From the IMG/VR virus record IMGVR_UViG_3300021387_000161, positions 81,523 to 145,522 of that record: 64,000 nt of DNA; one strand, 5' to 3'. Both the position numbers and the translations under genes were made by a program. This DNA comes from a virus (taxonomy: Duplodnaviria > Caudoviricetes). The notes under the pieces are model-generated. The model was not told the origin of the DNA, searched no databases, and was given only the letters and a program-made list of their open reading frames with translations. Shown here piece after piece: positions 10,782-52,504 of the stretch (the stretch's first letter is position 1; each line of letters opens with the position of its first letter).

Positions 10782-11615
10782 TTATTTATACAATAACTTT
10801 TTAAGATCTATATATGCTCCTGTGCAAGCACTTGTTGGTGTGTTATGTAGTTTATTTTTATCTACTTTTATTCCTCTATTCTCTACTATTTTCTTAGCTT
10901 CATCATATAAACCATTTTTTACAGCTTCATCAAACATGTTTTGGACTAAATGTATATTTGCTTTGGCTTGAGATTCATACAAATATTCATCATCATATTC
11001 TTCTTCGTCTCCAAAAGCACCTTCTAAATAATCTATTACATCATTAGCTAAATCTTCATCTCCATAATTATGTACTATTTCGCTCCATACTTCTCTTAAT
11101 GAAATATCATATGGGTATAAGCTACTATATTCTTTACAAACGTCATCAAAGAGTTCATAATCATAAGACTCATCTAATCCACTTCCATTTCTGTTTCTAC
11201 TATATATAATCCTGCCACCGTTTTGTTCAATAAAGTTTAATAGTTGAGATTTATCCATTGCTTTAACTTGTGATACAAGATGTATAAAGTCATCTGACGA
11301 AATACTCTGGCAATAAACTTCACCATAATCTGTATCATCATTAAATATTACAATACAATTTATAGAATTCAATACTTTATTCTTATTTTCATCATATATC
11401 ATTTTAGAACTTGAAAGTAATTTTATTTCTTTTCCATCACCTAATTTTATCCAATTTTTATCATTAAACTTTAACAATCCATGTCTGTTATCCGCCATTG
11501 GCATTGCACCGTTTATATCTTCCATAAATGATTCATTCAATCTTCTACTCTTCTTTTTTTCTTGCTCTATGCCACTCATAGCATATAATCTATCTGTAAA
11601 TTCATTTAATTTCAT
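10782..11615 (-). CDS. Acidic putative internal head (cargo) polyprotein
   Basis: MKLNE|...RRLNE|SFME|...GLDE|S...YLYE|S sites divide it into about three domains. Confidence 0.5.
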   Translation of the reverse strand: MKLNEFTDRLYAMSGIEQEKKKSRRLNESFMEDINGAMPMADNRHGLLKFNDKNWIKLGDGKEIKLLSSSKMIYDENKNKVLNSINCIVIFNDDTDYGEVYCQSISSDDFIHLVSQVKAMDKSQLLNFIEQNGGRIIYSRNRNGSGLDESYDYELFDDVCKEYSSLYPYDISLREVWSEIVHNYGDEDLANDVIDYLEGAFGDEEEYDDEYLYESQAKANIHLVQNMFDEAVKNGLYDEAKKIVENRGIKVDKNKLHNTPTSACTGAYIDLKKLLYK

Positions 11616-18261: not shown

Positions 18262-20091
18262 TTATTTCCTTTTTACTGTACCGTAAACTCTTACAGATTC
18301 ATTAAGATCATTCTTGCCCTTGTAATTATAATTTAATGATTCACAAACAAGTGATTTATCGTTTACAGAACAATTAAGTTTAAAAGTTTTTTTGCCCTTA
18401 CTTATTTGCTTATTATAACCTTCAAGTTTTAATTTGCCATTTTCAGAAGTTTTAGGAGAGAAAACAAATTGAGTATCTTTTTCATTACCTGAATCAAATC
18501 CAATTTTACCTTCTATGATAAACTCTTTACTTTCATTTAAAGAAATATTAGAAGTTTTAAATGAAGTTACATTTTCGTAACATCTTTTAAGATAAGATTC
18601 ACCTAATTCATCAAATGATTCCTCATCAAATTCCTCAAAATCTTCATCTGATTCAGGTTCTTCTAAATCAAAATCTTCGTCTGAAAATTCTTCTTCAGGA
18701 ATTTCTTCTTCATCTTCTTCGTCATTTAATTCAACGGCATCTTCTACATCAAGCTCTGTATCAGGCTCGATAGGAGCTATCATTTCTTCACCTTCAAAAG
18801 GTTCTTCTACTGATTCATCTTCTTTAGGAGAAGTTTCAACAACTACACCACCATCTTCTTTAGTGGTCATTGTGATATTTTCATCGTCTGTATTTATTGA
18901 AACATCTTCAATACCTTCTTCAAGCTCTTTCTTATCTTCACAGCCTTCTGAGAAAGTATCTTGGATCTTATCTCCAATCTTACCACCTACAAAACTACCA
19001 ACAGCACCACCAACAGGACCACCTATTGCAGTTCCTACTGCCTTTCCAGCAAGTTTACCGCCAATAGTTCCTTCAACACCTTCTTCAACTTTTTCAGCTG
19101 GAGTAATTAATGAAACCATTTCTTTCTGTTCATCTGCAGGAGCTCTTAAGAAAATCTCATCAACAGGTTCTGTTTCATCACCATACTTTGACAAAATAGC
19201 ATACATCTTATCAAAACCAGGATTATTAGCATTATTTGCATCATCATGGTACTTTAGAAATGTATCTACAAGACCTTCTTCCATAATTTCTGGGTCACCA
19301 CATTCTTCTAAAGATTCATCTAATTTATAAGAATATTCAACTTTCTTACCTTTTCTTAGTTTTTTATCTTCTCTTTTTAATTCGGCTATAGTGGCTTTAG
19401 CTTCTCTTTCTGTTTTTACCCTTGCTATTTCACCATCTACATCTGATTCTACTACCCATGGAGTACCTTGCTTCTTGGCTTCATTTAACTCTGTGTACTT
19501 TGGCCCACGAATCTCATCATTGCCTTCTAAATCATCAACAGCAGCAATTGGTCCATCAGCACCATTAATTTCTTCATCCCCACGAAGTTCTTTTACTTCA
19601 TCAGCTTTAAGACCTTCTTCTAATTCTTCGTCATCTTCAGGTTCTTCGGCTTCTATTTCAATGTCAACTTCTTCTTCCTCAGGAATTTCTCCAGTTTCAA
19701 CATCTTCAAGATCAACATCTTCTTCTTCCTGATAAGGTTTTACTTCACCTATAATAGTATAACCTTCATTTGACATACAATAAGGACATTCTATTTCTGT
19801 GCAACATAATCCATCTTCATCTTCTGTAATATCTTCTTTATTAAAGAATACATTACTATGACATACATTACAATCTAATATTACTTTGCCTATATAGGAC
19901 TGCTTTAAATCTTCTTTAGCTTCAGCTTCTAAATCATATACATCAGAAATTAATTCATCATCCTCTGCAGCATTAATAGTATCTAAAAAAGATTCTGTAT
20001 TTTCAGGATTAATAGCATCTAATGAAAGTTCTTCCACATCTTCAGTTAAATAAACTTGTTTGAATGCCTCTTGAATAAAACTATTATTCAT
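18262..20091 (-). CDS. Very acidic prohead core/cargo polyprotein with Zn ribbon and glycine-zipper segment
   Basis: CNVC...CPYC; many LxE/IxE sites; GGKLAGKAVGTAIGGPVGGAVGSFVGG. Confidence 0.5.
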   Translation of the reverse strand: MNNSFIQEAFKQVYLTEDVEELSLDAINPENTESFLDTINAAEDDELISDVYDLEAEAKEDLKQSYIGKVILDCNVCHSNVFFNKEDITEDEDGLCCTEIECPYCMSNEGYTIIGEVKPYQEEEDVDLEDVETGEIPEEEEVDIEIEAEEPEDDEELEEGLKADEVKELRGDEEINGADGPIAAVDDLEGNDEIRGPKYTELNEAKKQGTPWVVESDVDGEIARVKTEREAKATIAELKREDKKLRKGKKVEYSYKLDESLEECGDPEIMEEGLVDTFLKYHDDANNANNPGFDKMYAILSKYGDETEPVDEIFLRAPADEQKEMVSLITPAEKVEEGVEGTIGGKLAGKAVGTAIGGPVGGAVGSFVGGKIGDKIQDTFSEGCEDKKELEEGIEDVSINTDDENITMTTKEDGGVVVETSPKEDESVEEPFEGEEMIAPIEPDTELDVEDAVELNDEEDEEEIPEEEFSDEDFDLEEPESDEDFEEFDEESFDELGESYLKRCYENVTSFKTSNISLNESKEFIIEGKIGFDSGNEKDTQFVFSPKTSENGKLKLEGYNKQISKGKKTFKLNCSVNDKSLVCESLNYNYKGKNDLNESVRVYGTVKRK

Positions 20092-21426: not shown

Positions 21427-22182
21427 CTATTCACCAAAATTATACATTAAATCTTCAGCTAATGCTTCTACTAATTTTTGTGCATACATATCGTAAGAAG
21501 TAGTGCCTCCATCTTCTTTACACCAATCTAAATTATATTCTGGTATTTCTGAAGCAACCACTTGTGCGATATTAGTAATAAACTCATTATCTAATTTATC
21601 TCTTAAAAAATTAACTACTTTGTTATAAATATCATCTTCAATATCTTCAGTTAATTCTTTAGATTCATTTTTGATACGCTCGTCATGATACTTTTTAGCA
21701 TCATCAAATACACCACCAGGTTTATAAACATAAATAGAAGTTTGAGGTTTATAGTAGGATCTATTTTTGCCAAACGAGTTCTTCCATTCATTACATGCCG
21801 CTCTTGCTTCTTCCTTTGAATCAAATAAGGTACCATTTAAATCATTACCACCGACGAATCCCCCTCGTGTAGTAACAATATATTTTTTCCCTGATTCATC
21901 CTCGTTTAAAACTTCATTTAAATCTTCTGAATGACCTTCATCCTCACCATTATCTATAGAATAGAAATATCCATCTTTTCTTGCCTGATTAATATCTTCT
22001 TTTGAACCCATGAATCTATACAAGCATTCATCGCCTTGTCTACCCATTTTTTGACATTCAAGATTATATTCAGCAGCAAACTCAAATGGATCTTCTTCAG
22101 TTTGACCCCACCATTCATCTACATATGATTCATTAAGTTTATATTTTCTTTCTAAACTTTCTACTAAGTTTCTCATTCTCAT
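21427..22182 (-). CDS. Putative three-module internal head polyprotein
   Basis: Leader MRMRNLVE|SLERKYKLNE|S; internal DLNE|VLNE|D and ELTE|D. Confidence 0.5.
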   Translation of the reverse strand: MRMRNLVESLERKYKLNESYVDEWWGQTEEDPFEFAAEYNLECQKMGRQGDECLYRFMGSKEDINQARKDGYFYSIDNGEDEGHSEDLNEVLNEDESGKKYIVTTRGGFVGGNDLNGTLFDSKEEARAACNEWKNSFGKNRSYYKPQTSIYVYKPGGVFDDAKKYHDERIKNESKELTEDIEDDIYNKVVNFLRDKLDNEFITNIAQVVASEIPEYNLDWCKEDGGTTSYDMYAQKLVEALAEDLMYNFGE

Positions 22183-35286: not shown

Positions 35287-36774
35287 TTATTCTGTTTCTA
35301 TTTCTTTATGTTTACAAAGTATCATTATAATAAGCTGTAAAGTTAAGAAAGCAATCATTATTAATGTCCATTGATCAACTAATACCATCGGAAGAGTCAT
35401 ATCTTCTGTGATTAAGAATACAAATCCAGTTACTATAGCTACTACAATACTAATTATTCTTCCAAGCATTCTATTCCTTATTTCTAATTCATCGCTTTCT
35501 TTTCGTTTATTGATTAAAGCAAATATTAACAAAATAATAGTAATTAAGAAAGTTAGTAATGTTGCTATTAAATTAATTAATGCCCAACTGCCTTCTTGTT
35601 GAATAATACTTCTAGGTGGGTCGTTATTTTGTACTACTTTTGTTTGTACATAATTATCTTCTGTAATAACATGATTAATAATTGATGGTGTATTATTCTT
35701 AATTATTGGTTTATCAAACAATGATAAATAAGATAGATATTCTAAATATGCTCTTTTTTCTGGATATGATAAAGCATTAAAAACTTCCAGATCTAATACA
35801 GGCATAACAGGTATATTTGCATATTCAAATGGAGTTTTTAATTCATAAAAAGATGTCCATTGATATTCATACACCATACTTATATCTTCAAATGACCAAT
35901 AATATTCATTAGTACTATTAGCATAACTAATTTGATGAGTATCACCATTTTGCCAATCAGTAACTACATCTGCCGTAGGATATTCCTGTAATATAGAAAA
36001 TGAATTACTCCATACTCCATAAGTATGATTACTATCTGTATTATAAAAGAATAAACATGATACATCATTTATAACATCTGATTTAGGTGCCATTCCATAA
36101 AAAATAATTGTATCATTAGCATCTATTTCAAAATCAATACTGTTAAATATATTAGCAGCTGGGAAATTATGTTCTAAATGAACTGGTATCATTCTACCGG
36201 ATTTATTTTCAGCTTCTATTATTGTGTATGTATCTGTAATAGTAACTTTAGGGGCATTTGTATTTCTTTGTACAGAATTATTTACTGATTCCTCATCAAC
36301 ACCTAAAGCAATGTGATAATTCTTAACTGAAGTATTATATCGCTCTACATAATCATTATAATTTTTAACAGCTTCATTATACTGATCTAATGAATCGTAT
36401 CTAGGATCAGCTAGAACTCGTTCCTCAAAAGCTTTATCCTTATCATATTGTTCTTTTTCAATATCATATTGCTTTTGTTTTTCTTCGTTGACTTTATCAA
36501 CTCTTTCTTGTTCTAATTTGTTTTGCTCGTCGATGTCTTTTACAGCAGTATTATATTCTTCATCTACCGCTTGATTGTATTCCTTTGCTTGCTCGTTATA
36601 ATCTTTTACTTCTTCGTTGTATTCTTTTATCTTGTTGTTATCTTTATAATTTTCAACTTTTGGTTTTGTTGGCTCTGTAGGAGGATTATCCAAATCTGCG
36701 TCAGCAAAACTGTAAAAAGGAACTGAAAAAATAAAGATAATTGCAAGACAAATACCTAGTATTTTTCTTCTCAT
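35287..36774 (-). CDS. Host-like secreted, membrane-anchored surface protein
   Basis: Sec signal peptide (MRRKILG...SFA-DA), Tyr-periodic coiled-coil stalk, three C-terminal TM helices. Confidence 0.7.
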   Translation of the reverse strand: MRRKILGICLAIIFIFSVPFYSFADADLDNPPTEPTKPKVENYKDNNKIKEYNEEVKDYNEQAKEYNQAVDEEYNTAVKDIDEQNKLEQERVDKVNEEKQKQYDIEKEQYDKDKAFEERVLADPRYDSLDQYNEAVKNYNDYVERYNTSVKNYHIALGVDEESVNNSVQRNTNAPKVTITDTYTIIEAENKSGRMIPVHLEHNFPAANIFNSIDFEIDANDTIIFYGMAPKSDVINDVSCLFFYNTDSNHTYGVWSNSFSILQEYPTADVVTDWQNGDTHQISYANSTNEYYWSFEDISMVYEYQWTSFYELKTPFEYANIPVMPVLDLEVFNALSYPEKRAYLEYLSYLSLFDKPIIKNNTPSIINHVITEDNYVQTKVVQNNDPPRSIIQQEGSWALINLIATLLTFLITIILLIFALINKRKESDELEIRNRMLGRIISIVVAIVTGFVFLITEDMTLPMVLVDQWTLIMIAFLTLQLIIMILCKHKEIETE

Positions 36775-37049: not shown

Positions 37050-38354
37050 TTATGCTACTATAGCACCTTTGATTAACAGATCTTTATTTAAGATCTTGCA
37101 ATCATACATAGTTGACCAACCTTGACTCATTCCGCCATCAGCAAATCCAAGTAACTGAGTTGGAACTACTGGCATATATGGAGCATAGATACCAGCTGCA
37201 GCCTGCATAGCACCTTGGTTAACGCCAAGAATGAAAGTTCCAGCTTCGATATTAGGAGTTACGAATACTTTCATACCAGCTATAGTTCCTGCAAAGTAAG
37301 GACCATTAATGTCTGATACTGAAGCAGCTTGGAATCCAGGAACGAACTGAAGAACTGGCATTACATTTGAAGCAACTAACATGAAGTTAGGAGTAAACTT
37401 CTTAGTTCTGTCATAAAGTGCCATCTTGTACTCTTCTAACTTAGCAGCAAATGCAGCATAGTGATCAGCTAAGTTAACGCCTACAGGAAGAGTTTTACTA
37501 AAGTTAGCTACTGCAGCTACTGGTTGTGCGGCATCAATTAACATATTACAAATTTCAGTATCGATTTCATATGATAACTGACCAACAGCTTGTTCAGCTA
37601 AACCGTCAGCTAAATCGAAACCGTAATCTGTCTTAGCTTGGAAAGCTGCCATCTGGCTGTAGAATACAGCAATTCTTCTAGCTCTAGCTTCAAGACCGAT
37701 ATTCTTTAATTCTGCCTTTAAAGTAGGAAGAGTTTCTTGAGGAATAATTACGTTGTCATACTTATAAGCAATCTTCTTAACAGTACCTGAAACTGTAGCA
37801 GTTACAGTACCATCTTCAGCTACTGAAACGGCAGTAGCTTCAAGGTCAACACCGTCAGCATCAAGTAACTTAACACTATCTTCAACTACTGGCGTAAATG
37901 CAACTTTAGTTGTTCCAGAAGTAAAAGTATCAACTGGTTCTACAACTGCTTGACCAGTGTAGTTAACATCTACATCACCAAGAGCCCAAATATTATTTGT
38001 TAAATCGCCTTCACTTGATTCACCCTTAGTAGTTCCTTTTACATACTCGATATATGCTACATTACCATACATTGAGCTCATAGGACTTACATGTACTAAA
38101 TCAAAAGCGATTAAGTTAGGAAGACCAACATTAGTTAAAGCGATACAAAATCTCTTGTAATCTCCCATTGCTGATCTTTGAGTTCCCATTGAAGAATCAA
38201 AAGCCTCATTGAGGAATTTATTAACATTGTCTAAACATTTTGCAACAGTGATTTTTCTCATGTTATCCATGGATTCACCGTTGTGTCTATTTTGATATAC
38301 AGCCTCTGCTAACTGTAATTTTTTTGAATATTTTTCTAATAATCTATTTGCCAT
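37050..38354 (-). CDS. Major capsid protein (T4 gp23-like)
   Basis: PNLIAFDLVHVSPM, EARARRI, QLSYEIDTEI, GIYAPYMP; downstream of the protease; predicted propeptide cleavage FLNE50|A. Confidence 0.92.
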   Translation of the reverse strand: MANRLLEKYSKKLQLAEAVYQNRHNGESMDNMRKITVAKCLDNVNKFLNEAFDSSMGTQRSAMGDYKRFCIALTNVGLPNLIAFDLVHVSPMSSMYGNVAYIEYVKGTTKGESSEGDLTNNIWALGDVDVNYTGQAVVEPVDTFTSGTTKVAFTPVVEDSVKLLDADGVDLEATAVSVAEDGTVTATVSGTVKKIAYKYDNVIIPQETLPTLKAELKNIGLEARARRIAVFYSQMAAFQAKTDYGFDLADGLAEQAVGQLSYEIDTEICNMLIDAAQPVAAVANFSKTLPVGVNLADHYAAFAAKLEEYKMALYDRTKKFTPNFMLVASNVMPVLQFVPGFQAASVSDINGPYFAGTIAGMKVFVTPNIEAGTFILGVNQGAMQAAAGIYAPYMPVVPTQLLGFADGGMSQGWSTMYDCKILNKDLLIKGAIVA

Positions 38355-38396: not shown

Positions 38397-41183
38397 TTAT
38401 CTTATAAACGCCTCCGCAACTTTTAAATCATAATCCGTTATTTCATCTTCTGGATTAGCTCCTACTAATCCGTTATTAATATTTTTAGCGTTAATTTTAA
38501 TATTCTCATTTAATACTTGAGAACTAAAAGGCAAATTACTCATATTGAACTTATATTCTTGTAAATCTTCACATATTTTATCTATATCGTTAAATGAGTA
38601 GGATTTAGGAAGTCTATTAACAATTTCATCTGGTTTTACACCAAGTCTAACTGCCTGTGACTCTACATATCTCTTTACAGAGTTTTTAGCTACTCTGCGA
38701 TATTTTTCTATGATCTGATTCTGCTGTTCTAATTTTTTAGAGTAGTTTTCTCTTACTTGTTCTAAATCTTTTTGACCGTTTTCATATTTTTCTTCTAATT
38801 GTTTTATGTCATTTTCTTTAGAACTTAATTGATCTTTATATTCACTTATTTGTTCATTTAAAGATCGTATCTTTGAATTTTTCCTGTCTACTGATTCATT
38901 TAATATAGAAATATCTTTGTGTAGATCTTTATTTTCTGAACTCTTAGACTGTATGGATTCATTCAAAGTTGAAATCTTACCTTCGGCTTGTGCTTTATTA
39001 TCTTTTAATAATTGTTCAGCTTTAGATAATTTTTCAGTTAAAACTTTTACTTCTTTAGTTTTCTTAGATAACTTAGTTATCTTTTGTTTGTAAGTATCTA
39101 AATCTTCTTTTAATTCCATTTCTTTTGCATAGCTAACTGAAAGTTTTTCTTGAAGATTCTTTACTTTTTCCTCTAAAGTTTTATTAAGTTTTAATATATT
39201 TTGAAGTTGTTCTACCATAGCCATGTCATTGTCACCTGCTAATTCAACTTTTTCTTCATTACCGGCATTAATAATATCTAAATTATCAGTACCGAATTTA
39301 TCAAATAACTCATCACGAGTATATTTTTCTTCTGTTAATGGTTCACCATATTTTTTCTCATAGTTATCATTATCAAAATCTATTTGTTCATCTGATGGTT
39401 CATCCCAAGGAATATCTTTACTATGAGATTTTACATAATCCATAACTCTTTGAAGATTAGCTTCCTCCATATAAAAATCTTCATCTTCATAATCAGGATT
39501 AGCATTTTCTTCATTATACATATTTACAGCACCACGTACCGCATCTTCTATAGAAGAACCATTTTTGATTTCTACTAATGCTGTTTCAACAGCACTTTGT
39601 TCAGTACTATTTAAGTCTTCCCAATATGGAGCGAAGAAATCCATATCTTCTTCGTCTTCACTCTCATTTAAAGATTCTTGAAAGAAAATAGTACAACCAG
39701 GATCAGATGTATGATCATAAATATCATATTTCTTACCCTGTGCTTCTAAATCATCTGTGAAATCTCTTATCATTCCACTTTGTTTTTCTCTATCATCAAA
39801 CTGCTTAAAATTATGATTATATGCTACGTCTAATCTATGAAAATCAGTATCCCAAGATTCTCTTTCTGGTTCTTCATCTTCTAATGCTTCTTCTACTGTT
39901 TCCTCATCTTCTTCATTACTTTGAATAGTATTATTATCTTGTTGATTAGATTGAGTTTCAGTAGTAGCTATATCTTCTTCATCTTTAATATCTTCTTTAT
40001 TCTTTAAAATTTCACTAGGTTTCTCCGTTGGTTTAGTTTCTTCTCTACCTACTTGCTCTTCATTCAGCTTTCCTTCTATAATATTAACAATTGGACCATC
40101 TTCAGACCAATTATCAGATGTTGAAGGTGGATAAGCAAAAGCATGCCAGTTTTGATAATTAGTTCTAATATAACCATTATCCTTATCAAAATTAGCCCTG
40201 TTGAATTCTGCTAATGAAGCTGGAAGACCATTATATTTAAGGGCTTGCTGTAGTTCTTCAATAGTATCAAAGTTCTCATAACTCTTGTTGCTACTTAAAG
40301 AGAACTCCCAACCATCTTCAAATGGTTTATAAAGATAATAGTTTATTTCATAACCGCCTTCTTTAAGCAGGCTTTCTTTGAAGAACTGACCATTTGGATT
40401 AAATCTATCAATATATTCTTTAGCATTTTTTAATGAATTAAGTGTAGTTTGATTATCAAGATCCCCAACTATATATTTCTTAGTATCTGGATCATAATAT
40501 ATATCTTCATCATGATATGTCTCTACAAATCTCCAGTTGTCATCAATATCTAATTCATCGAGAGCTTCTTCCATTATTCTTCTATCTGTATCAGAAGCAT
40601 TTTTAAGAGCTTCACTTAATATAGTTTTTAACTTATTATTCGATTTAGTGTTTAAGCTTTCATTAAACTGTAATCTGGCATCTTCACACGCCGGAATTAA
40701 TACTAAATCAAAGGCATTTAATGTATAAGTATCAGGATCTACTGATTCCTCACCGGAAAAATCTTGAATTAAATCACCCTCACCTCTTGAAGAAATACCA
40801 AATTTAAATCCATATTTACCAAGCTGATAGGCTATTTGACCACATGGAGTATCAAGTATATCTACTGATGCTACTAAATGTCCATTTGAATCCTTTTTAG
40901 GAGGTTCTGGCATCATAATAGCAATCTTAGTAGGATCAGTTTCTGATCTATTCTCTGGATGCTGCAACTCCCCAGGAAGTCCACCATTTTTAAACATTTC
41001 CTTAACTAAAGGAGAGTCAAATGCTTTTTCCCATAATTTATCTGAATATTTCCTACCATTTCTAGTTCCTTTAGTAAAACTAGCAATAGGACCAGTCAAT
41101 CTGGCTAGTATACCTCTAGCTTCTTTTTCTTCTGGGCTCAATTCTTGAAATTGTAAATCTTCGTGTTTTAATGATTCTAACAT
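38397..41183 (-). CDS. Prohead protease (T4 gp21-like) fused to inserted modules and a coiled-coil scaffold
   Basis: NGRKYS, GELQHP, FGISSRGEG, FDLV..PA protease motifs in the first ~175 aa; C-terminal coiled coil; 928 aa. Confidence 0.88.
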   Translation of the reverse strand: MLESLKHEDLQFQELSPEEKEARGILARLTGPIASFTKGTRNGRKYSDKLWEKAFDSPLVKEMFKNGGLPGELQHPENRSETDPTKIAIMMPEPPKKDSNGHLVASVDILDTPCGQIAYQLGKYGFKFGISSRGEGDLIQDFSGEESVDPDTYTLNAFDLVLIPACEDARLQFNESLNTKSNNKLKTILSEALKNASDTDRRIMEEALDELDIDDNWRFVETYHDEDIYYDPDTKKYIVGDLDNQTTLNSLKNAKEYIDRFNPNGQFFKESLLKEGGYEINYYLYKPFEDGWEFSLSSNKSYENFDTIEELQQALKYNGLPASLAEFNRANFDKDNGYIRTNYQNWHAFAYPPSTSDNWSEDGPIVNIIEGKLNEEQVGREETKPTEKPSEILKNKEDIKDEEDIATTETQSNQQDNNTIQSNEEDEETVEEALEDEEPERESWDTDFHRLDVAYNHNFKQFDDREKQSGMIRDFTDDLEAQGKKYDIYDHTSDPGCTIFFQESLNESEDEEDMDFFAPYWEDLNSTEQSAVETALVEIKNGSSIEDAVRGAVNMYNEENANPDYEDEDFYMEEANLQRVMDYVKSHSKDIPWDEPSDEQIDFDNDNYEKKYGEPLTEEKYTRDELFDKFGTDNLDIINAGNEEKVELAGDNDMAMVEQLQNILKLNKTLEEKVKNLQEKLSVSYAKEMELKEDLDTYKQKITKLSKKTKEVKVLTEKLSKAEQLLKDNKAQAEGKISTLNESIQSKSSENKDLHKDISILNESVDRKNSKIRSLNEQISEYKDQLSSKENDIKQLEEKYENGQKDLEQVRENYSKKLEQQNQIIEKYRRVAKNSVKRYVESQAVRLGVKPDEIVNRLPKSYSFNDIDKICEDLQEYKFNMSNLPFSSQVLNENIKINAKNINNGLVGANPEDEITDYDLKVAEAFIR

Positions 41184-41190
41184 TTATATA

Positions 41191-41553
41191 TTACCTGTAT
41201 ATTAATTCTCTTACTTGGTCCCAATTATATTTTGAAGAATCCCATGCAACAACGTCCAGTATATATATTAAATAATCTTCAGAGTCATAATTTGAAAGTC
41301 TAGTGAAATGATAATCGAAATCATTAGAATCAGCATATTCTCTAAATTTCCAATAAGTCCACCCGTCGAAATCAACAGGCCTTGGAACTTCTAATTGAAA
41401 TTGAGTTATAGTATCATTGGCAAGACCTGACTTTACCTTATTTACGAATTCATTAAAAACAGTATCTTTTAATTGATGAATATCATATTCTTCATTTATT
41501 ATTCTATAATCAACTTCAGTAACTCTATATAAACTTTCTTCTATTCTACTCAC
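41191..41553 (-). CDS. Putative internal head protein with IxE/VxE leader
   Basis: Begins MSRIEE|SLYRVTE|VDYRIINE|E. Confidence 0.45.
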   Translation of the reverse strand: MSRIEESLYRVTEVDYRIINEEYDIHQLKDTVFNEFVNKVKSGLANDTITQFQLEVPRPVDFDGWTYWKFREYADSNDFDYHFTRLSNYDSEDYLIYILDVVAWDSSKYNWDQVRELIYR

Positions 41554-41562
41554 TCTTTATCC

Positions 41563-41820
41563 TTAATCGTGATAATATCTTCTTTCTTTATACATCTTTT
41601 TCAGTTGCTTTCTTCTTGCAACTTTAGCTGCTTTTCTTCTTTTATCACCTTTACTTACGTAATACATTCTATCTTGACATTCTTTTAAAATACCTTCATT
41701 TATAACTTTTTTTCTGAATAATTTTATAGCAGCCTCGACATTATCTGCACATGCATCTTTATATTCTGCATATGATTTATAATCATTCTTATTAATTTTC
41801 TTTACATAAACTTGTGCCAA
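41563..41820 (-). CDS. rpsU: Ribosomal protein bS21 homologue
   Basis: NVEAAIKLFRKKVINEGILKECQDRMYYVSKGDKRRKAAKVARRK matches the bS21 pattern; TTG start with GAGG SD. Confidence 0.85.
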   Translation of the reverse strand: MAQVYVKKINKNDYKSYAEYKDACADNVEAAIKLFRKKVINEGILKECQDRMYYVSKGDKRRKAAKVARRKQLKKMYKERRYYHD

Positions 41821-42416: not shown

Positions 42417-44303
42417 CTACATTTCAGTAAAATCTCCTGCACCTAAATCAGATGGGGTTGGAAGTTCATCTCCACCAGATTCTTCTGAACCAAAATCATC
42501 TCCTAGATCTCCAAAATCATCACCACCGTCATCAAAATCAAAATCTCCATCAAGATCTGATCCACCAAAATCTCCACCAAGATCATCACCGAACATATCA
42601 TCATCGAAAGAATCATCACCGCCTGTGTCTTGTTCTTCCGCATCTGATTCTAACCCGTCAATAGTATCTTGAATGAGCTGTATAACTTCTTGATTAGATA
42701 TTACTTTTGATAGTAATGATTTTAACATTTTAAGCTTAATAATTGGATCCTCTATATCTCCAACCATTCTCATAATATCATCAGTTATTTGTATTTCAGC
42801 TGATAAACTATCTCTCTTATCTAATTCTTCTTGAGTAACTGGTTCTTGCATCTGTAAAGTAAACTTATTTACATAAGAATCAAGTCCTCTATCTATTAAT
42901 AAAATATTAATGCAGTCTGTTAACATTTGTTTTATAGTAGATTGTATTCTTTTTACAGTTTTTGCATATCTAGATGATACTATTGATAATGAAGTACCAC
43001 CATTAAATCCAGTTGCATCATCTGTATCGCCTAAATATTGTTTAGGAATTTTTAAACTACCATAAAATTTATTCTTAAAGTAATCAATATCTGCAATATC
43101 TCTTACATTAACATCACCACCAATTTGCTGTGTATTAATAGCACCAATACCATTTCTAGTAGGAACATAAATATTATTTTCCATAGCACCTGGATTAGTG
43201 TATTCAGACATCTTATCGTTGTCACTAATAGAAGTTTTCTGTTCTACTAATGATTTAATTCTTTGTAAATACGGCTGAACTCTTTCTTTTGGCATGTCCG
43301 CTACTTCAACTTCTATCACTCTTAAAATAGATGACTTAGTTAATCTATTTAAAAGTAATGCGTTTTCTAAAAGCATCATCTGTCGCCATATTTTATAGGA
43401 ACTATATAGTAATGATTGACCTCTATTTACAGAAAATATATTAACATCATCTGTTTCTAAATCACCATCATTAAATATTTGTACTTGTTCTGGTATTCTA
43501 GGAGTATCATCTAACAACGCAGCATGTACATAACTTACAGCATTATAAATTTCTATATCTTTCTTTCTTAATTTATATAGATAATAAGAAGATATTAATG
43601 GATTATCCTGCTGCATCATTGTAGGAAGTTCATTTGTTTTTATATAGGCATAACTTTTTCCAAACTTAGTTAACTCAAACATCTCTCCAGGATTTGGCAC
43701 CATTTCAACAAAATTGACTAGTCTATCATCTGAAGAATATCCCTTTAATACAACATTTTCCTTCAGTTGTTCTGGTTCTGGTTGATCCCCCAACTTTGTA
43801 AATGCTTCATTTAATTTACTCTTCTGATCTTTTTCTAAAAGACTATCTTCAAAATCTGATTGTCTGAAGAGCTTTAAATATAAATCTCCATATTTACATA
43901 AAGAATATACCCATCTATAAATATTCTTTTCTACATTCAAACTTTTTAATAAAAAAGTTATATAACTAGAAACATTAGCATCACTTGATTCTACCCAGAC
44001 CGTTTGTCCTTGTTCATTTGTTTCTGTAGAATCTTCTGCATATATTTCTAGTATTGCAGCAACTGTAGAATCTTGTGCCATTGTATCAAGTACTTGATAC
44101 AAGGACTCTCTACTATGTGACAGTTGAGAAAAACTATTTATTGATGTTATATCAATACTAGTAGAAGTTGCTGCTTCTATAATATCATTAAAAAATTGAT
44201 TATTAGTATCTAACCCTGTCGGTGTTTCTGGCACAGGCTGCGCATTTATTTTGTTACCTATTTTAGTATTATCTTTATTAAAGATAGTATCATTATCTGG
44301 CAT
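42417..44303 (-). CDS. Portal protein (T4 gp20-like)
   Basis: LCKYGDLYL, GQSLL...WRQMMLLENALLLNRL, DIDYFKNKFYGSLKIPKQYL; acidic C-terminal tail. Confidence 0.9.
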   Translation of the reverse strand: MPDNDTIFNKDNTKIGNKINAQPVPETPTGLDTNNQFFNDIIEAATSTSIDITSINSFSQLSHSRESLYQVLDTMAQDSTVAAILEIYAEDSTETNEQGQTVWVESSDANVSSYITFLLKSLNVEKNIYRWVYSLCKYGDLYLKLFRQSDFEDSLLEKDQKSKLNEAFTKLGDQPEPEQLKENVVLKGYSSDDRLVNFVEMVPNPGEMFELTKFGKSYAYIKTNELPTMMQQDNPLISSYYLYKLRKKDIEIYNAVSYVHAALLDDTPRIPEQVQIFNDGDLETDDVNIFSVNRGQSLLYSSYKIWRQMMLLENALLLNRLTKSSILRVIEVEVADMPKERVQPYLQRIKSLVEQKTSISDNDKMSEYTNPGAMENNIYVPTRNGIGAINTQQIGGDVNVRDIADIDYFKNKFYGSLKIPKQYLGDTDDATGFNGGTSLSIVSSRYAKTVKRIQSTIKQMLTDCINILLIDRGLDSYVNKFTLQMQEPVTQEELDKRDSLSAEIQITDDIMRMVGDIEDPIIKLKMLKSLLSKVISNQEVIQLIQDTIDGLESDAEEQDTGGDDSFDDDMFGDDLGGDFGGSDLDGDFDFDDGGDDFGDLGDDFGSEESGGDELPTPSDLGAGDFTEM

Positions 44304-44314
44304 TTAATTACCTC

Positions 44315-46342
44315 TTAAATTACTAAACAATCACCAAACAAAGCATAATCAGTAGTAGAAGCCCCTAAACCAAAATCAGTATACATAGTATCTTTATTTA
44401 AACTTTGTCCAAATGCATTAGATACTCGTTTAAGTTCTTCCTCAAAATCTACTGTTATTTGCTGTTTATTATCTGCTATTTCTGATGAACTAGATACATT
44501 TATGATTGTATCAATAGTTTCACCAAATTCAAAATTAAACTCTTCTCCATGTTGGGATGCATTCCATATAGCACCACATAATGCGTCTGCTGAGTCTTTT
44601 GAATTTATCCCAGAAGGAGTATGATCTATTTTTCCATTAGAATTATTTCTTTCTAACCCTAGTAACTCTTCTGTTAATAAAGTATTTTCAAACAATTCTA
44701 ATCGTTCTTCATATATTGTTGATTTTAAATATTGATAAGGTAAGCATATATTATCTTTAACCCTATCTACAGATATTGTTTCAGCTTCATACCCTTTTCC
44801 AATTAATTGCTGTTTCATATCTGCACTTTGGTATGTATCAAATGATATGCCTTTTATATTAAATCCATTTTCTTTGAGCCAATAAATAAACTGTCTATTC
44901 TTTTCAAAACTTATTTGATAGCCTTTAGGTGCTTTTATAGATACAACAAAAGCCGTTCTATAATATAATTCTTTTGAAGGTGGTTGACCTTCTACGGGAG
45001 GTTTTTTACCTCTTATCCAAACACCTGCTAATCCTGTTTTGTCCCCTGATATAGACATATCTAAATGTATATATAATGGATATTGAAGTAATGTTTTATC
45101 AATACTTTCTAAATCAAAGAAATCATAATATTGATTTTTATCCTCTGGATTATTCCCTATTTCTAATATATCTGAAGAAAATGGATTTTTAAATTCTTTG
45201 TGTTTTATTGCTGCTATTCTTGGTCCAGATAAGTATCTACTGCTACTAGTAGTAGATATTCCAGCTATATCAGTTAATGCAATATCTATATCATCAATAA
45301 AGTTTTCATAATATCCCATTGGTACATCAATAACTTTAAATCCTCTATCACGATATATTTGTACATCATTTTCAGTAGCAGTTAATGGTATAACCTCTGA
45401 AGATAAAAATTTATTCCCTATAGCAACTTTAAATTTGGAACTGCTGTTTTTATCCTCTCTAATTACCCATTGTGGTTCATCTATTACTAATGTAGTTTTA
45501 CTTTCATTCTGTTTCTTACTTTCAATGAAAGTCTCCATATAAGATTGTTCTGTTCTTTTAGATGAAGCTAATATTAATAATGTAGGATTTTTATCACCCT
45601 TCATAAATCTGGACTGCATACGAGCAGAAGCAGTATTTACTAAAGCTTTCGCTTTTTCTTTCTGCTTTTCTACATCTTGATTTGGTTGAAATGAAATTTC
45701 ATCGAAGAATGCACTAAATACAGCACGACCAATTATATGTCTACTTAATGAACCAGCTATTAACTCTATATTTTTACTAGGACTCCATTCAACATTAATA
45801 TCTCCTCTAACAGTACCTTTTGATAAAAACCAATCAGAGGATTGTAATAGTTGTTGAAGTTTATCCCAAGCTACACCTTTACTTGCATCTAATGTAATAT
45901 TCATTACTGCAAAAGTTATTTTATCTATTGGCTGTAATCCATAATATACATACGGATCTTTTAAGCATAACATTCTGTATAGTTCATATAACATACATAA
46001 TACTGCCATAAAAGATTTACCAATACCAATAGAACCAGTTAAAGCAAGAGTATTATAACTAGCTGGTTTTAAAGGATCTGGAAAAATTTGTTTTAACGTA
46101 TTTACCCAAAATGGAAATACAGTAAATTTTCCTTCATCGTTTATTAACCCATTTCCAAGATATTTCTTATCTTTTAAAAAAGTTTCAATATCTACTGGTA
46201 TTTCTTCATAATCTTCTAATATTAACTTATTATATTCTTCCGATTGACCAGTAGTAGATAATTGTGTTATTATCTTTAAAACTTCTTCTTTTTCTTCTCT
46301 GCTTAAACTATTTAATTCTTTAAGGTTATCTAAATTTGTCAT
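44315..46342 (-). CDS. terL: Terminase large subunit
   Basis: GSIGIGKS Walker A, FFDE Walker B, HLDMSISGD and KDSADA nuclease motifs; adjacent to portal. Confidence 0.9.
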   Translation of the reverse strand: MTNLDNLKELNSLSREEKEEVLKIITQLSTTGQSEEYNKLILEDYEEIPVDIETFLKDKKYLGNGLINDEGKFTVFPFWVNTLKQIFPDPLKPASYNTLALTGSIGIGKSFMAVLCMLYELYRMLCLKDPYVYYGLQPIDKITFAVMNITLDASKGVAWDKLQQLLQSSDWFLSKGTVRGDINVEWSPSKNIELIAGSLSRHIIGRAVFSAFFDEISFQPNQDVEKQKEKAKALVNTASARMQSRFMKGDKNPTLLILASSKRTEQSYMETFIESKKQNESKTTLVIDEPQWVIREDKNSSSKFKVAIGNKFLSSEVIPLTATENDVQIYRDRGFKVIDVPMGYYENFIDDIDIALTDIAGISTTSSSRYLSGPRIAAIKHKEFKNPFSSDILEIGNNPEDKNQYYDFFDLESIDKTLLQYPLYIHLDMSISGDKTGLAGVWIRGKKPPVEGQPPSKELYYRTAFVVSIKAPKGYQISFEKNRQFIYWLKENGFNIKGISFDTYQSADMKQQLIGKGYEAETISVDRVKDNICLPYQYLKSTIYEERLELFENTLLTEELLGLERNNSNGKIDHTPSGINSKDSADALCGAIWNASQHGEEFNFEFGETIDTIINVSSSSEIADNKQQITVDFEEELKRVSNAFGQSLNKDTMYTDFGLGASTTDYALFGDCLVI

Positions 46343-49322: not shown

Positions 49323-49703
49323 TTAATTATCTTGATATACTGCTGTTAATACTATATCATCATAACCTTCCATAACAGCAGTTTTTAATTCTGTATAATC
49401 TTCTTGAGATATAATTACTGTTTTATCTCCATAACTAAATTCCCAACCAGAAAATGTTTTATCTTCTATTTGTTCTGGTACTGGAAATTTAATTCTATTT
49501 TTATTTGGTGAATAAACTTCATCTGAAAGTAAATCGTTATTAACAGAATAAAATCTTAATCTGAATACAATAGGTTCAATATATTCTTTAACTAATTTTC
49601 TATCATACTTTTTCTTAAGATAATTTTTATTTCTTCTATCCCACTTAAATGGGTATTCATAACAAAATAATTCACTTTCATATGAATCGTATTTATTAGT
49701 CAT
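49323..49703 (-). CDS. Small protein with InlB B-repeat-like domain
   Basis: PVPEQIEDKTFSGW...DIVLTAVY; start reassigned to MTNKY at 49703. Confidence 0.5.
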   Translation of the reverse strand: MTNKYDSYESELFCYEYPFKWDRRNKNYLKKKYDRKLVKEYIEPIVFRLRFYSVNNDLLSDEVYSPNKNRIKFPVPEQIEDKTFSGWEFSYGDKTVIISQEDYTELKTAVMEGYDDIVLTAVYQDN

Positions 49704-51195
49704 TTTCTGTCCAATTAAAATTTTGCATCGCATTGGATAATTCATTGACTTCATATCCAAGCGTTTTTATAATACTAGCAGAAGTATCAAATCCATCTGA
49801 AGTATTATCTGCTAAAGAATAATAAGCTTGTTTCAGTTCTTGAAGAATTTTTTTCATTTCTGATCTAAAATCATCTTTAGAAGTCAAGTCTTCGTTTAAA
49901 GTACTTTCTGATAGTAACTTTTGACCTTCTTCTTTAGTTAAATGGTGTTTACTAACTAAATTTTTAACGTATTGTTCAGGTGACCAATCTTTTGGCATCT
50001 TGCCTTCTTTAAATCTTTTTATCTGTTCTTTTGCTATATCAAACTTAACAGACTCTGTCATTAAATTACCATCTCTAGTAAAAGATAATTTAAACAATCT
50101 ATTTACTAAATCACCAATTTCTTCGCCAGTTACATGATCATCTTTAGCAAATACTTTAGATAGCGTTTTTAATGCTCTAGATATAAATTCTTTTTTATCC
50201 TCATCAGATATTTTAAATTTATTTTCAAATTCTTTTTTTGATAAAAAATTTATCAATTGCTTTTCTAACACAGCTTTCTTGTCTCCAAAAGCTTCTGTTA
50301 GAGATTCATTATACTCTTCCCACTCACCATCGTCTATAAAATGAAATTCAAACCACTCTAAAGCTTGAGCCCATTCATCAGGAGTTACCTGCTTATTTCG
50401 CCACTTAAATGCTACATCTTCTAACGCATGATAAACATCACTATTGAAATTCTGGATTTCGCCTTGTGATAAATCTTCAGCTAAGTTTGTAACATTTTTA
50501 AAAAAATCATCGTATGCATACTTAAAAGCTGCTTCCATTTCTTCTCTAGTCACATTCTGATATTTCCGGAATACTTCCTCAATAGCATCACTTATATCAA
50601 CATTTAAACATAATTGACCATGCTCACTAAGGTCTTCACCTAAGGGCATGACATCTTCATCAAATAATGCCTCACTCAGATGCATAGCTTTAAGAGCTTT
50701 TGAAGTTACCTTCTTACCAGTCTCACCTTCTTTAGGAATTGTTTCTTTAGCTAACTTCTCATTTTCTTTTAAAGCAGCTTCTTTTTCTTTATCATCTCTT
50801 TCTTTATCTTCAACTGCTTTCCCAAATACAGGATCAACATTTGTTGACACCTTTTCTGGAACATTAGGGAAATTTTCACTTAATTTCATTTCTTCTACCT
50901 TTATATCTGTATTATCTAATTCGTCAATAGCTTCTTGTTTACCATCATCTATTGATTTAGCATTTGGGGAAATTAGCTCAACCAGCTGTTGTAATTTCCC
51001 AACATTCTTATTTTCATCTTCTAGTATGCTTTGAATTACTGGTACTAAATCTTCATAACCTTCTTCATTTAAGTTAACAATAATACTGTTAAAATCTCTT
51101 ATATTATCCCACTTTTTATTAATAGAATCTATAATAATATCAGATATACCAGTAACAACATTTATATCTGCATTTTCTTTTAACTTTAACTTCAT
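49696..51195 (-). CDS. Acidic putative internal head polyprotein
   Basis: MKLKLKE|N, KLSE|N, HLSE|A, NLAE|D, SLTE|A, LMTE|S, LLSE|STLNE|D. Confidence 0.55.
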   Translation of the reverse strand: MKLKLKENADINVVTGISDIIIDSINKKWDNIRDFNSIIVNLNEEGYEDLVPVIQSILEDENKNVGKLQQLVELISPNAKSIDDGKQEAIDELDNTDIKVEEMKLSENFPNVPEKVSTNVDPVFGKAVEDKERDDKEKEAALKENEKLAKETIPKEGETGKKVTSKALKAMHLSEALFDEDVMPLGEDLSEHGQLCLNVDISDAIEEVFRKYQNVTREEMEAAFKYAYDDFFKNVTNLAEDLSQGEIQNFNSDVYHALEDVAFKWRNKQVTPDEWAQALEWFEFHFIDDGEWEEYNESLTEAFGDKKAVLEKQLINFLSKKEFENKFKISDEDKKEFISRALKTLSKVFAKDDHVTGEEIGDLVNRLFKLSFTRDGNLMTESVKFDIAKEQIKRFKEGKMPKDWSPEQYVKNLVSKHHLTKEEGQKLLSESTLNEDLTSKDDFRSEMKKILQELKQAYYSLADNTSDGFDTSASIIKTLGYEVNELSNAMQNFNWTEND

Positions 51196-51217: not shown

Positions 51218-52504
51218 TTATAAGTTATAAATTCTTATGGTATGATCAGCTACATAAGAATCACTACCATCATCATCTGTTACATGTTGCCAGATTTTAT
51301 AATCAAGTCCCTTATTATCTAACCACTCTTTAGCATAGTAGTCAAATCTTGCGTGATCGTGTTTCCAATCACCACTTATACTAAATGTAATAGTGTTATC
51401 AAATTGAGCATCATACCAAAAATCTCTTACCCAAACTTTATCTTCTATATAATCATCTAACTCGTATGCTATCTCTTTAAGTTTATTAAATGATTCTTCA
51501 TCAAAAGCTTCTGTTATTTTCCCATCAATAACAGCATAAAATACAAAAGCAGTTCTTGTATTTTTCTTTTGTTCATACTCTGGGTCAAGGTTGGATAATA
51601 CAGGTTCCTTTTCTATATCTAGATATATATCATGAGATTCTAATGAACGTAATTCTTTTAAGAACTTTTCTGAAAAATCTTTTCCTATGGCTTCAACTAC
51701 AAAGCAATCAACAGTTCTTACCATTCGCTCTAATTCTGGATAATATCTATCATGGTAACTTTCTGCTACTTTTACATGATACTTTTCAAATATTCTTAAA
51801 ATATAATCTTCATAAATACCTACAAGAGATTCATTTAATTTATTAAATGATTCTTCATCTACATCTTCTGTAAATGATTCTTTAATAATTACTTGACAAG
51901 TATCATAATCTTTGATTATCTCACAATTATAGTTAAGATTATCTAATATGTTTTTAATCTTTAATGCTGTCTTTGGGCCGACATCGTTAATAGCACCATA
52001 CTCTACAGTTTCTATTATTCCATTATCACTTAGAATATCTTCAATTTCTTTATCAAAGTTCTTATTGATGGAATCTCTTGATGAATATACTTTTTCTTCA
52101 TTTAAGGATTCATTAGCCCTGTCTTGCGCCACCATACCAGTCATATAAGTATTTACTTCTTCAGCAGTTTTAGCTTTTCTAACAAATCTAGCTAGATCAT
52201 TTTTCTGTTGAGCAGATAATGTAGTCTTAACCGATTCAAACAACATTTCTAACTCATACGTGTTACAATTTTCATCAAACTCTTTTCTATCAAATCTTTT
52301 TAATGATTCCACTAAGGAATGGTAGTTATAATTACTATCTTCTATTTTCACTATATCTTCCTTTGGATGTTTTTTAGCATAGTTTCTTACTTCTTCAGCC
52401 GACATAGCCACATATACAGTATCACCATTACTATTCAAACCATAGTATTGAGTTAAATTTTCTTTTATTTCTTTTCCAACTGTATATTTCTTTACATCAC
52501 TCAT
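51218..52504 (-). CDS. Acidic putative internal head polyprotein
   Basis: IKE|N, LVE|S, LFE|S, LNE|E, IKE|SFTE|D, LNE|S, ITE|A; duplicated DEESFNKL. Confidence 0.55.
   Translation of the reverse strand: MSDVKKYTVGKEIKENLTQYYGLNSNGDTVYVAMSAEEVRNYAKKHPKEDIVKIEDSNYNYHSLVESLKRFDRKEFDENCNTYELEMLFESVKTTLSAQQKNDLARFVRKAKTAEEVNTYMTGMVAQDRANESLNEEKVYSSRDSINKNFDKEIEDILSDNGIIETVEYGAINDVGPKTALKIKNILDNLNYNCEIIKDYDTCQVIIKESFTEDVDEESFNKLNESLVGIYEDYILRIFEKYHVKVAESYHDRYYPELERMVRTVDCFVVEAIGKDFSEKFLKELRSLESHDIYLDIEKEPVLSNLDPEYEQKKNTRTAFVFYAVIDGKITEAFDEESFNKLKEIAYELDDYIEDKVWVRDFWYDAQFDNTITFSISGDWKHDHARFDYYAKEWLDNKGLDYKIWQHVTDDDGSDSYVADHTIRIYNL
51482..51859. repeat. 21-bp direct repeat pair inside a CDS
   Basis: TTTATTAAATGATTCTTCATC at 51482-51502 and 51839-51859, 357 bp (119 codons) apart. 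Confidence 0.85.

Follow-up and report, generated by a model that had tools for sequence, protein, structure and literature searches.

A prohead protease-scaffold polyprotein gene with exchangeable modules between candidate cleavage sites in an uncultured phage

Results

The protease-scaffold gene and its locus

We analyzed a stretch of 64,000 nucleotides (the window; positions 81,523 to 145,522 of IMG/VR virus record IMGVR_UViG_3300021387_000161; Duplodnaviria, Caudoviricetes) and, within it, a minus-strand gene whose 928-aa product, here termed P0001, joins a prohead protease, an array of small modules and a putative coiled-coil scaffold in one polyprotein. The complete record is a 145,522-bp virus genome with direct terminal repeats, estimated to be complete and with ∼30% G+C. 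A first-pass annotation of the window had placed an open reading frame (ORF) at 38397-41183, and this ORF proved to be real, with an ATG start and, as assigned here, on the minus strand. In coding-strand order, as assigned by Pfam and PHROG, a large terminase and a gp20-like portal are followed by three small ORFs, P0001 and a gp23-like major capsid protein. P0001 adjoins the capsid gene and is the only coiled-coil scaffold candidate between the portal and capsid genes. It consists of three regions, an S77 protease at the N-terminus, a middle of 480 aa and a coiled-coil C-terminus (aa 656-928). The net charge of aa 176-655 is −78, and the last 273 aa are mildly basic. The features are listed below in coding-strand order; an arrow marks a candidate cut.

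44315-46342, minus: large terminase (coding-strand gene order, Pfam/PHROG)
42417-44303, minus: T4 gp20-like portal (Pfam/PHROG)
38397..41183, minus: P0001, a polyprotein that joins protease, cassette array and scaffold (928-aa ORF, ATG start)
40659..41183, minus: gp21-like S77 prohead serine protease core, aa 1-175, terminating in the conserved QFNE↓S (PF03420, alignment with 5JBL)
40542..40658, minus: module 'a', aa 176-214, two predicted helices, contains MEE↓ALDE (phrog_207 match to aa 210; AlphaFold)
40359..40541, minus: module A, aa 215-275, four predicted strands and a helix, with the C-terminal linker FFKE↓SLLKE↓ (AlphaFold; present in nearly all relatives)
40059..40358, minus: cassette B, aa 276-375, a rare swappable module ending in KLNE↓E (AlphaFold and comparison of relatives)
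39888..40058, minus: EQVGREETK motif ('lk') and then an acidic, predicted disordered linker, aa 376-432, ending in VEE↓A (pLDDT <50)
39663..39887, minus: module D, aa 433-507, predicted helix-strand-helix-strand-strand, ending in FFQE↓SLNE↓ (AlphaFold)
39330..39662, minus: module F (three predicted helices, net charge −13) and acidic tail G, aa 508-618, ending in PLTE↓E (AlphaFold, junction sequences, charges)
39219..39329, minus: module H (KYTRDELFDKFGTD...), aa 619-655, conserved lead-in to the scaffold (present in most relatives)
38397..39218, minus: putative coiled-coil scaffold region (∼aa 660-840) and conserved C-terminal ∼90 aa; aa 656-928 plus stop codon (sub-threshold Pfam coiled-coil matches)
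37050..38354, minus: gp23-like major capsid protein (Pfam Gp23, E 5e-29, domain beginning at aa 67)

The N-terminus is a member of the S77 family. Pfam Peptidase_S77 (PF03420) matched aa 40-169 with 33 bits, above the cut-off of 27, and phrog_207, annotated 'head maturation protease', covered aa 3-210 (E 7.8e-31). The motifs GELQH75P and GIS131S132RG of P0001 aligned with GELNAP and GVASRG of the T4 gp21 chain 5JBL, and both the His motif GELQHP and the Ser motif GISSRG were nearly invariant among 40 family members. The protease had been drawn at aa 1-175; its identity stands, but the extent of the phrog_207 match suggests that the unit probably reaches ∼aa 210. Matches to known phages likewise extended to aa 210-250. 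Module 'a', for which AlphaFold predicts helices at aa 184-210 (pLDDT 65-73), is probably the protease's own C-terminal extension.

At the other end, aa 656-928 matched 57 coiled-coil-type Pfam families, all sub-threshold and placed in aa 656-850, in line with the coiled-coil scaffold that had been proposed for the last ∼270 aa. Phage_scaffold (PF06810) reached E 0.0076 and 16.7 bits against a cut-off of 35, and relatives scored likewise under this threshold; membership of P0001 in PF06810 is not claimed.

The middle region is predicted to contain several small folded domains

The middle (aa 176-660) was modelled with AlphaFold2 from a 40-sequence alignment (model numbering plus 175 gives protein numbering). 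In this run the alignment was too shallow to resolve cassette B, which was modelled alone with ten homologues. Compact cores were predicted for module A (aa 218-261, pLDDT 83-90), cassette B (aa 282-355, pLDDT 81-94, pTM 0.62), module D (aa 447-501, pLDDT 82-88) and module F (aa 515-587, pLDDT 77-91). Module H showed short helices at aa 623-640 (pLDDT 62-69). The segments had been described as globular-looking, which holds for A, B, D and F but not for aa 376-440, an acidic linker predicted to be disordered (pLDDT <50) in which acidic residues make up 42% of aa 401-450. According to these models the middle comprises at least four compact mini-domains plus linkers, and is neither a single domain nor wholly disordered.

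Relatives share the ends of the protein and differ in the cassettes between them

A search of 5.8 billion proteins returned 714 homologues of 510-1624 aa, all of them metagenomic, and the best 120 of the 714 were examined. Single-linkage clustering of modules merged everything into one giant cluster through shared linkers, and seed-based mapping was used instead. Conserved ends and a variable, cassette-like middle had been set beforehand as the expected outcome of this comparison, and this was what we found. The protease end (first 175 aa) was 94-100% identical to P0001 in the 35 closest relatives listed. In the same 35 proteins the scaffold part was 63-100% identical, and across relatives in general 45-100%. 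The length of the middle ranged from 169 to 754 aa across the relatives listed, and 43 distinct module orders were found among 118 proteins (matches listed). Conservation and colinearity of the middle, a single domain or complete disorder had each been named as outcomes that would count against a cassette array; the middle is not colinear across relatives, and neither of the other two applies.

The family has a common backbone: protease - a - A - [slot 1] - EQVGREETK/acidic linker - [slot 2] - D - [slot 3] - F - [slot 4] - H - [slot 5] - scaffold. The 'lk' motif EQVGREETK is conserved across the family. Into the slots are placed members of at least 16 unrelated cassette families (B, C, E, I-K, M-V) of ∼50-120 aa each, and further segments fall outside these families. 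P0001 itself reads a-A-B-lk-D-F-G-H. Several cassettes change place: B occupies slot 1 in P0001 and P0007 and slot 4 in P0024, its only occurrences in the family among the matches listed, and two slots each are used by J (3 and 4), O (2 and 3) and P (3 and 4). The tandem site at the end of module D is retained regardless of which module comes next. The passengers had been called foreign domains. This description does not suit A, D and F, which are near-universal in the family; only B, and in part G, is a rare cassette in P0001. Each of these three is nevertheless missing from some members, and P0036 (617 aa) and P0117 (609 aa) have almost no middle; thus, none of A, D and F is strictly needed. 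Inteins and homing elements were rejected as the nature of the cassettes, which are 50-120 aa long and have no nuclease or splicing motifs and no Pfam matches.

Cassettes were recently exchanged between nearly identical genomes

The locus was compared at the DNA level with that on another viral contig (L005). From 6.8 kb upstream through codon 261 of P0001 the two sequences are 99.1% identical. Over codons 262-374, corresponding to cassette B, there is no similarity, and L005 holds a different segment of 242 nt, cassette C. Identity resumes over codons 375-507 (96.7%). After codon 507, L005 contains ∼170 extra nt, cassette E, and the next 3.1 kb, into the capsid gene and past it, are 98.4% identical. 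The right edge of the B/C swap reads ...KLNE↓EQVG in the window and ...PLVE↓EQVG in L005, and cassette E is inserted exactly at FFQE-SLNE↓. Its flanks form a near-repeat, GAATCTTTAAATGA ... GAATCTTTAACCGA, coding for E-S-L-N-E and E-S-L-T-E. This suggests that the repeated linker-coding sequence served as the recombination substrate. In a more distant genome of 144.9 kb (L007; 76-81% DNA identity) synteny is kept, and its version of the gene encodes 1153 aa with other inserts.

Candidate cut sites are concentrated at module junctions and in the capsid leader

The protease gp21 of T4 cleaves after Glu in L/I-x-E, as Black, Showe and Steven reportedly described in 1994. The motifs listed for P0001 by the first-pass annotation were all found in place: FNE↓S at aa 173-176, MEE↓ALDE at 204-210, FKE↓SLLKE↓G at 268-276, KLNE↓E at 372-376, VEE↓A at 430-433, FQE↓SLNE↓S at 501-508 and PLTE↓E at 615-619. 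The loose motif [LIVMF]xE by itself is weak evidence because it occurs 39 times in the 928 aa. The strict form L-[NT]-E occurs eight times, or 0.86 per 100 aa compared with 0.13 for all minus-strand ORFs of the genome (6.6-fold). Five of these eight sites lie in the scaffold part, as expected of a scaffold that gets chopped up.

Across 34 proteins, [LIVM]-x-E was present at 123 of 138 distinct module junctions. Its density was 7.3 per 100 aa at junctions and 2.24 within modules (3.3-fold; odds ratio 3.4, Fisher p 5e-30), a statistic that is partly circular, as some seed modules were cut at motifs, and whose p-value overstates independence, as the sequences are related. The DNA breakpoints in L005 are independent of seed choice. 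The junction consensus is L-(N/T/E)-E, with L at P3 in 120 of 181 cases, mostly N or T at P2, and A, E, D, S or G at P1'.

The same motif is found in the major capsid protein. FLNE↓A stands at aa 48-51, at the end of an N-terminal part of ∼50 aa and ahead of the Gp23 domain (aa 67). These ∼50 aa are likely a propeptide ending in LNE↓A, for which removal of the T4 gp23 propeptide provides a parallel (PMC5694885). Related giant-phage proteases use A/S-x-E sites (PMC5694885).

Cassette B also occurs outside the family

Cassette B was used as a query in a full HMMER scan of 1.84 billion representatives, which gave nine matches only. Among them were stand-alone proteins of 63, 101 and 108 aa and four unrelated multi-module proteins (P0122, P0124-P0126), in which B takes differing positions with 44-51% identity. 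Two PepSY-repeat proteins were matched marginally (E ∼6e-4). Since B is found both free-standing and in unrelated proteins, it is, on the basis of these matches, an autonomous, mobile small domain. Elsewhere in the phage genome no family cassettes were detected; the sole match was a weak one to cassette T (E 0.007).

The four multi-module proteins have features of their own. P0122, P0124, P0125 and P0126 share the N-terminus MEFINTG...LVQKEV.V.GKNG..FTRKQWV and repeated 'ITWKE.D..INWMR' modules, and the latter show weak matches to PHROGs whose annotation is transcriptional regulator or ParB-like. These proteins may represent another class of shuffled small-domain proteins.

Other genes of the window

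Two of the three small ORFs between the portal gene and P0001 gave no family match in Pfam or PHROG. The third, an 85-aa ORF (41563-41820, minus) with a TTG start in the gap between portal and protease, encodes a bS21 homologue (Pfam Ribosomal_S21, E 1.6e-11, aa 27-72). Immediately upstream of the protease lies a 120-aa ORF (41191-41553, minus) that is aromatic-rich and carries IINE↓E at aa 19-22, resembling a short cleavable leader; it gave no Pfam or PHROG match and does not resemble the cassettes. More generally, the small ORFs upstream of P0001 showed no similarity to cassettes.

Directly downstream of the capsid gene, a 495-aa ORF (35287-36774, minus) starts with a signal-peptide-like N-terminus, MRRKILGICLAIIFIFSVPFYSFA, and continues with repetitive E/K/N-rich sequence. 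A weak, sub-threshold Pfam match to a 7TM region lies near its C-terminus, and it looks like a moron-type surface protein.

Punctuation by L-x-E, SLNE or LTE was also noticed in other ORFs without Pfam matches (21427-22182, 49696-51195, 51218-52504, 10782-11615 and 18262-20091, all minus). The highest L[NT]E density of the genome, 1.59 per 100 aa, was found in the 251-aa ORF among them. At the level of BLAST, the L-x-E-punctuated ORFs elsewhere in the genome had no cassettes in common with the protease-scaffold family. The same protease may process them as additional substrates or as cargo polyproteins.

Discussion

A proposed route for protein cargo

We propose that the gene produces a single polyprotein in which a gp21-type protease is followed by an array of independently folding modules and by a coiled-coil scaffold that would co-assemble with the capsid protein. 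Because they are placed between protease and scaffold, the modules would ride into the prohead core with every copy that is built in, and a separate targeting peptide would be unnecessary. After closure of the shell, the protease would cut behind Glu at L/I/V/M-x-E sites, mostly L-N/T-E and often in the tandem form phi-x-E-S-L-N-E. This cleavage would free the protease, chop the scaffold and liberate each module inside the capsid as a free, mostly acidic protein of 5-12 kDa. The folded modules, which have few internal sites, would survive as free proteins. At the DNA level the repeated junction-coding sequence would offer in-frame recombination points for gain, loss and replacement of cassettes and for change of slot. 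The freed modules would then enter the host with the DNA as capsid-internal cargo, like T4 internal proteins, and would most plausibly act against host defences.

Taken together, our analysis points to capsid-internal cargo for co-injection as the most likely role of the modules, and we regard this role as probable. The earlier interpretation, that domains inserted into this prohead protein would be packaged automatically and released on maturation, is supported as far as sequence can go. A more far-reaching version is possible, and we put it forward tentatively: the phage population would recombine small anti-defence or host-takeover proteins into the gene at the repeated linker and cut-site sequences, and tens to hundreds of copies per capsid would be loaded without a signal, freed by the protease and co-injected.

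Several observations weigh against a cargo role, in addition to the partial circularity of the junction statistic described above. Most cassettes of the extremely acidic middle have a pI of 4-5, and T4 internal proteins contact DNA through lysines (PMC3012670); an acidic core would fit material that is expelled on DNA entry, as with scaffolds. Modules A, D and F are near-universal and family-specific and may serve in assembly rather than as cargo. Short free-standing relatives of A, D, F, G or H were looked for, and only two contig-end fragments came up, the contigs being 524 and 901 bp long. At several sites of P0001 the P3 residue is F (FNE, FKE, FQE), unlike the classical preference of T4. 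When P0001, its parts and eight relatives rich in cassettes were scanned with Pfam and PHROG, only the protease and coiled-coil noise were returned, and no LPD-type Pfam families were matched by P0001 and its parts. Foldseek against the PDB gave E ≥1 for the model of the middle and E ≥0.3 for B, the best Z scores of VIA-align (5.6 for the middle, 3.9 for B) were both within noise, and the ESM Atlas held no usable match for B or for D+F. In the structure searches, low-level rows paired A with an anti-Cas complex and F with T7 Ocr, for instance; such rows were within noise and were not accepted as evidence. With no family or fold match, function has to be argued from the architecture alone. For this uncultured phage it is cleavage, retention in the virion, ejection and function that we infer.

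Alternative explanations

As the main rival to the cargo reading, the modules may be disposable filler of the scaffold core that sets its volume, charge or geometry and is excised at the same sites; degradation or expulsion, before DNA packaging or in its course, would keep them from ever reaching the host, and their variability would then reflect drift and recombination under weak constraint. The strong negative charge of the middle (net −78) is like that of scaffold cores displaced by DNA, modules A, D and F are colinear as well as near-universal and family-specific, and cultured relatives have a plain coiled coil in the same position. In T4, moreover, core proteins are cut to fragments that exit the capsid (PMC5694885). 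Filler would, however, have no need of compact folded domains with pLDDT 80-94, and would not be expected to turn up as a free-standing small protein and as part of unrelated proteins, as cassette B does. The near absence of a middle from P0036 and P0117 indicates that modules are not needed for the core. Cleavage would leave the domains whole and not shred them, given that cut sites are depleted inside domains and fall between them, and turnover between 99%-identical genomes suggests selection for change. We consider filler unlikely, while taking it seriously.

Two further explanations appear much less probable. The modules could be intramolecular prodomains or inhibitors that hold the protease latent until the prohead is complete and whose removal activates it. 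PepSY domains are associated with peptidase propeptides, and it is PepSY-repeat proteins that cassette B marginally resembles. Module 'a' adjoins the protease and bears cut sites, and C-terminal autoprocessing is found in the prohead proteases of phiKZ and SPN3US (PMC5694885). A regulator would be expected to be conserved, yet at least 16 unrelated families swap across several slots; most family members have no B, and B itself has no Pfam match and a resemblance to PepSY that lies at the limit of noise. A regulatory role of this kind is highly improbable. Hardly more probable is an origin of the pattern in chimeric metagenome assemblies, or a scaffold that is made mainly from a nested start with the full-length form being minor. 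All relatives are metagenomic, and in the window a Shine-Dalgarno-like AGGTGA precedes the ATG of Met654 by 7 nt. The variants, however, preserve both the reading frame and the junction motifs, and they are seen again and again on independent contigs drawn from several sources, some of them 100-160 kb long, with synteny intact in both L005 and L007. The hexamer reads AGATGA in L005, the closest relative compared at the DNA level, and Met654 is absent from most family members, which have DGA[LIV][VI]EQLQ there. As neither the Shine-Dalgarno-like site nor the Met is conserved, the nested start was downgraded as a candidate. Even a minor full-length species could still deliver cargo, since gp21 of T4 is present in only ∼100 copies (PMC5694885).

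Implications

If the modules are released and injected, the gene would represent a new genetic route for delivering proteins to the host ahead of gene expression. Loading would depend on membership in the scaffold and not on a targeting peptide, and the population would hold a library of at least 16 exchangeable cassettes in one essential gene. The cassettes would make up a reservoir of small, unannotated folds, apparently new, that are candidates for counter-defence, and the gene would illustrate clearly how cassettes are exchanged in frame where linker-coding sequence is repeated. A simple design rule would also follow for loading foreign proteins into capsids. Should the more far-reaching version hold, the gene would be a natural template for such loading, and a single hypervariable gene would do here what the internal-protein loci do in T4. 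If the modules instead do no more than fill the core, this would still be an unusually plastic essential assembly gene and would show how much added sequence a scaffold tolerates.

Comparison with known systems

An N-terminal maturation protease fused to a scaffold is also found in herpesvirus UL26/UL26.5 (assemblin-linker-scaffold) and in lambda C/Nu3, where a linker joins the protease to the scaffold; the scaffold part takes the protease into the procapsid, and the protease excises itself. Their linkers are not known to carry exchangeable folded passengers, and a nested in-frame scaffold gene is required; in P0001 the signs of such a gene are weak and not conserved. Small shuffled domains are known from another context. 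The polyvalent proteins of phages and conjugative elements, which Iyer et al. are said to have described in 2017, are reportedly strings of shuffled, mostly uncharacterised small domains that are delivered with the DNA, and the Dar proteins of P1 are capsid-packaged anti-restriction proteins. The likeness would lie in the small shuffled domains; of the cassettes, only B is shared with the multi-module proteins P0122 and P0124-P0126. In contrast to P0001, these systems are not known to belong to a protease or scaffold or to show maturation-protease punctuation, and they usually contain recognisable enzymatic domains.

The nearest cultured phages are Streptococcus phage vB_SagM-GXN1, Listeria phage LIS04 and Bacillus phages SP-15 and HSE3, which are also nearest by capsid protein (27-30% identity). 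The hosts of the P0001 family are probably low-GC Bacillota. Known phages match P0001 over aa 5-250 only; across about this span the protease N-termini of the SP-15, LIS04 and GXN1 ORFs are homologous to it (32-44% identity), and a long C-terminal extension follows in each ORF. In SP-15 (gp031, 568 aa), LIS04 (LIS04_60, 559 aa) and GXN1 (a 558-aa ORF) the protease homologue stands directly before the capsid gene, and in GXN1 coiled-coil or low-complexity sequence comes straight after the protease. These three ORFs are 360-370 aa shorter than P0001 and lack the array of globular cassettes. By sequence comparison, a protease with a scaffold-like tail is the norm in this lineage, and what P0001 has in addition is ∼360 aa of other material. 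The contrast with T4 drawn in the first-pass annotation was correct in that T4 uses separate genes, but the novelty of the fusion was overstated, given that SP-15, LIS04 and GXN1 have fused genes too. In SP-15 (L003, KT624200.1, 25479-27996) the major capsid gene is annotated as two joined pieces around an endonuclease gene, in the manner of an intron or intein. Only the C-terminal half of the SP-15 capsid protein matched that of the window because the SP-15 gene is interrupted.

The closest functional parallel proposed here is T4, which packs ∼1000 copies of internal proteins by means of a cleavable targeting sequence (PMC3012670). These T4-type proteins form a hyperdiverse anti-restriction set (PMC3012670, PMC5694885). 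With the gp21 system of T4, P0001 shares the S77 family, the order portal, protease and gp23-like capsid gene, and a site of the form hydrophobic-x-Glu followed by the cut. Diverse small proteins are loaded into the prohead core of T4 and freed by the maturation protease (PMC3012670, PMC5694885), and the same is proposed here. In T4, however, the protease and the scaffold each have a gene to themselves, as does every internal protein, and a targeting peptide of 10-20 aa is required for each cargo. The cargo candidates of P0001 are in-frame cassettes in the protease-scaffold chain, present 1:1 with the scaffold and exchanged at linker repeats within one gene. They are acidic, in contrast to the lysine-mediated DNA contact of T4 internal proteins. 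Whereas a T4-type internal protein is defined by a separate gene and an N-terminal targeting sequence ending in L-x-E, the modules are internal to one ORF; their likeness to T4 internal proteins concerns how they are proposed to be released and does not extend to gene form or sequence.

A full-text literature search of limited coverage found protease-scaffold fusions and processing in T4 and giant phages, and no cassette array in such a gene; the databases searched gave none either. Already known are S77 proteases, protease-scaffold fusions and capsid cargo released by the protease, as exemplified by T4 internal proteins and giant-phage ejection proteins. Folded cassettes that are exchanged in frame between protease and scaffold and are punctuated by the protease's own sites appear to be new.

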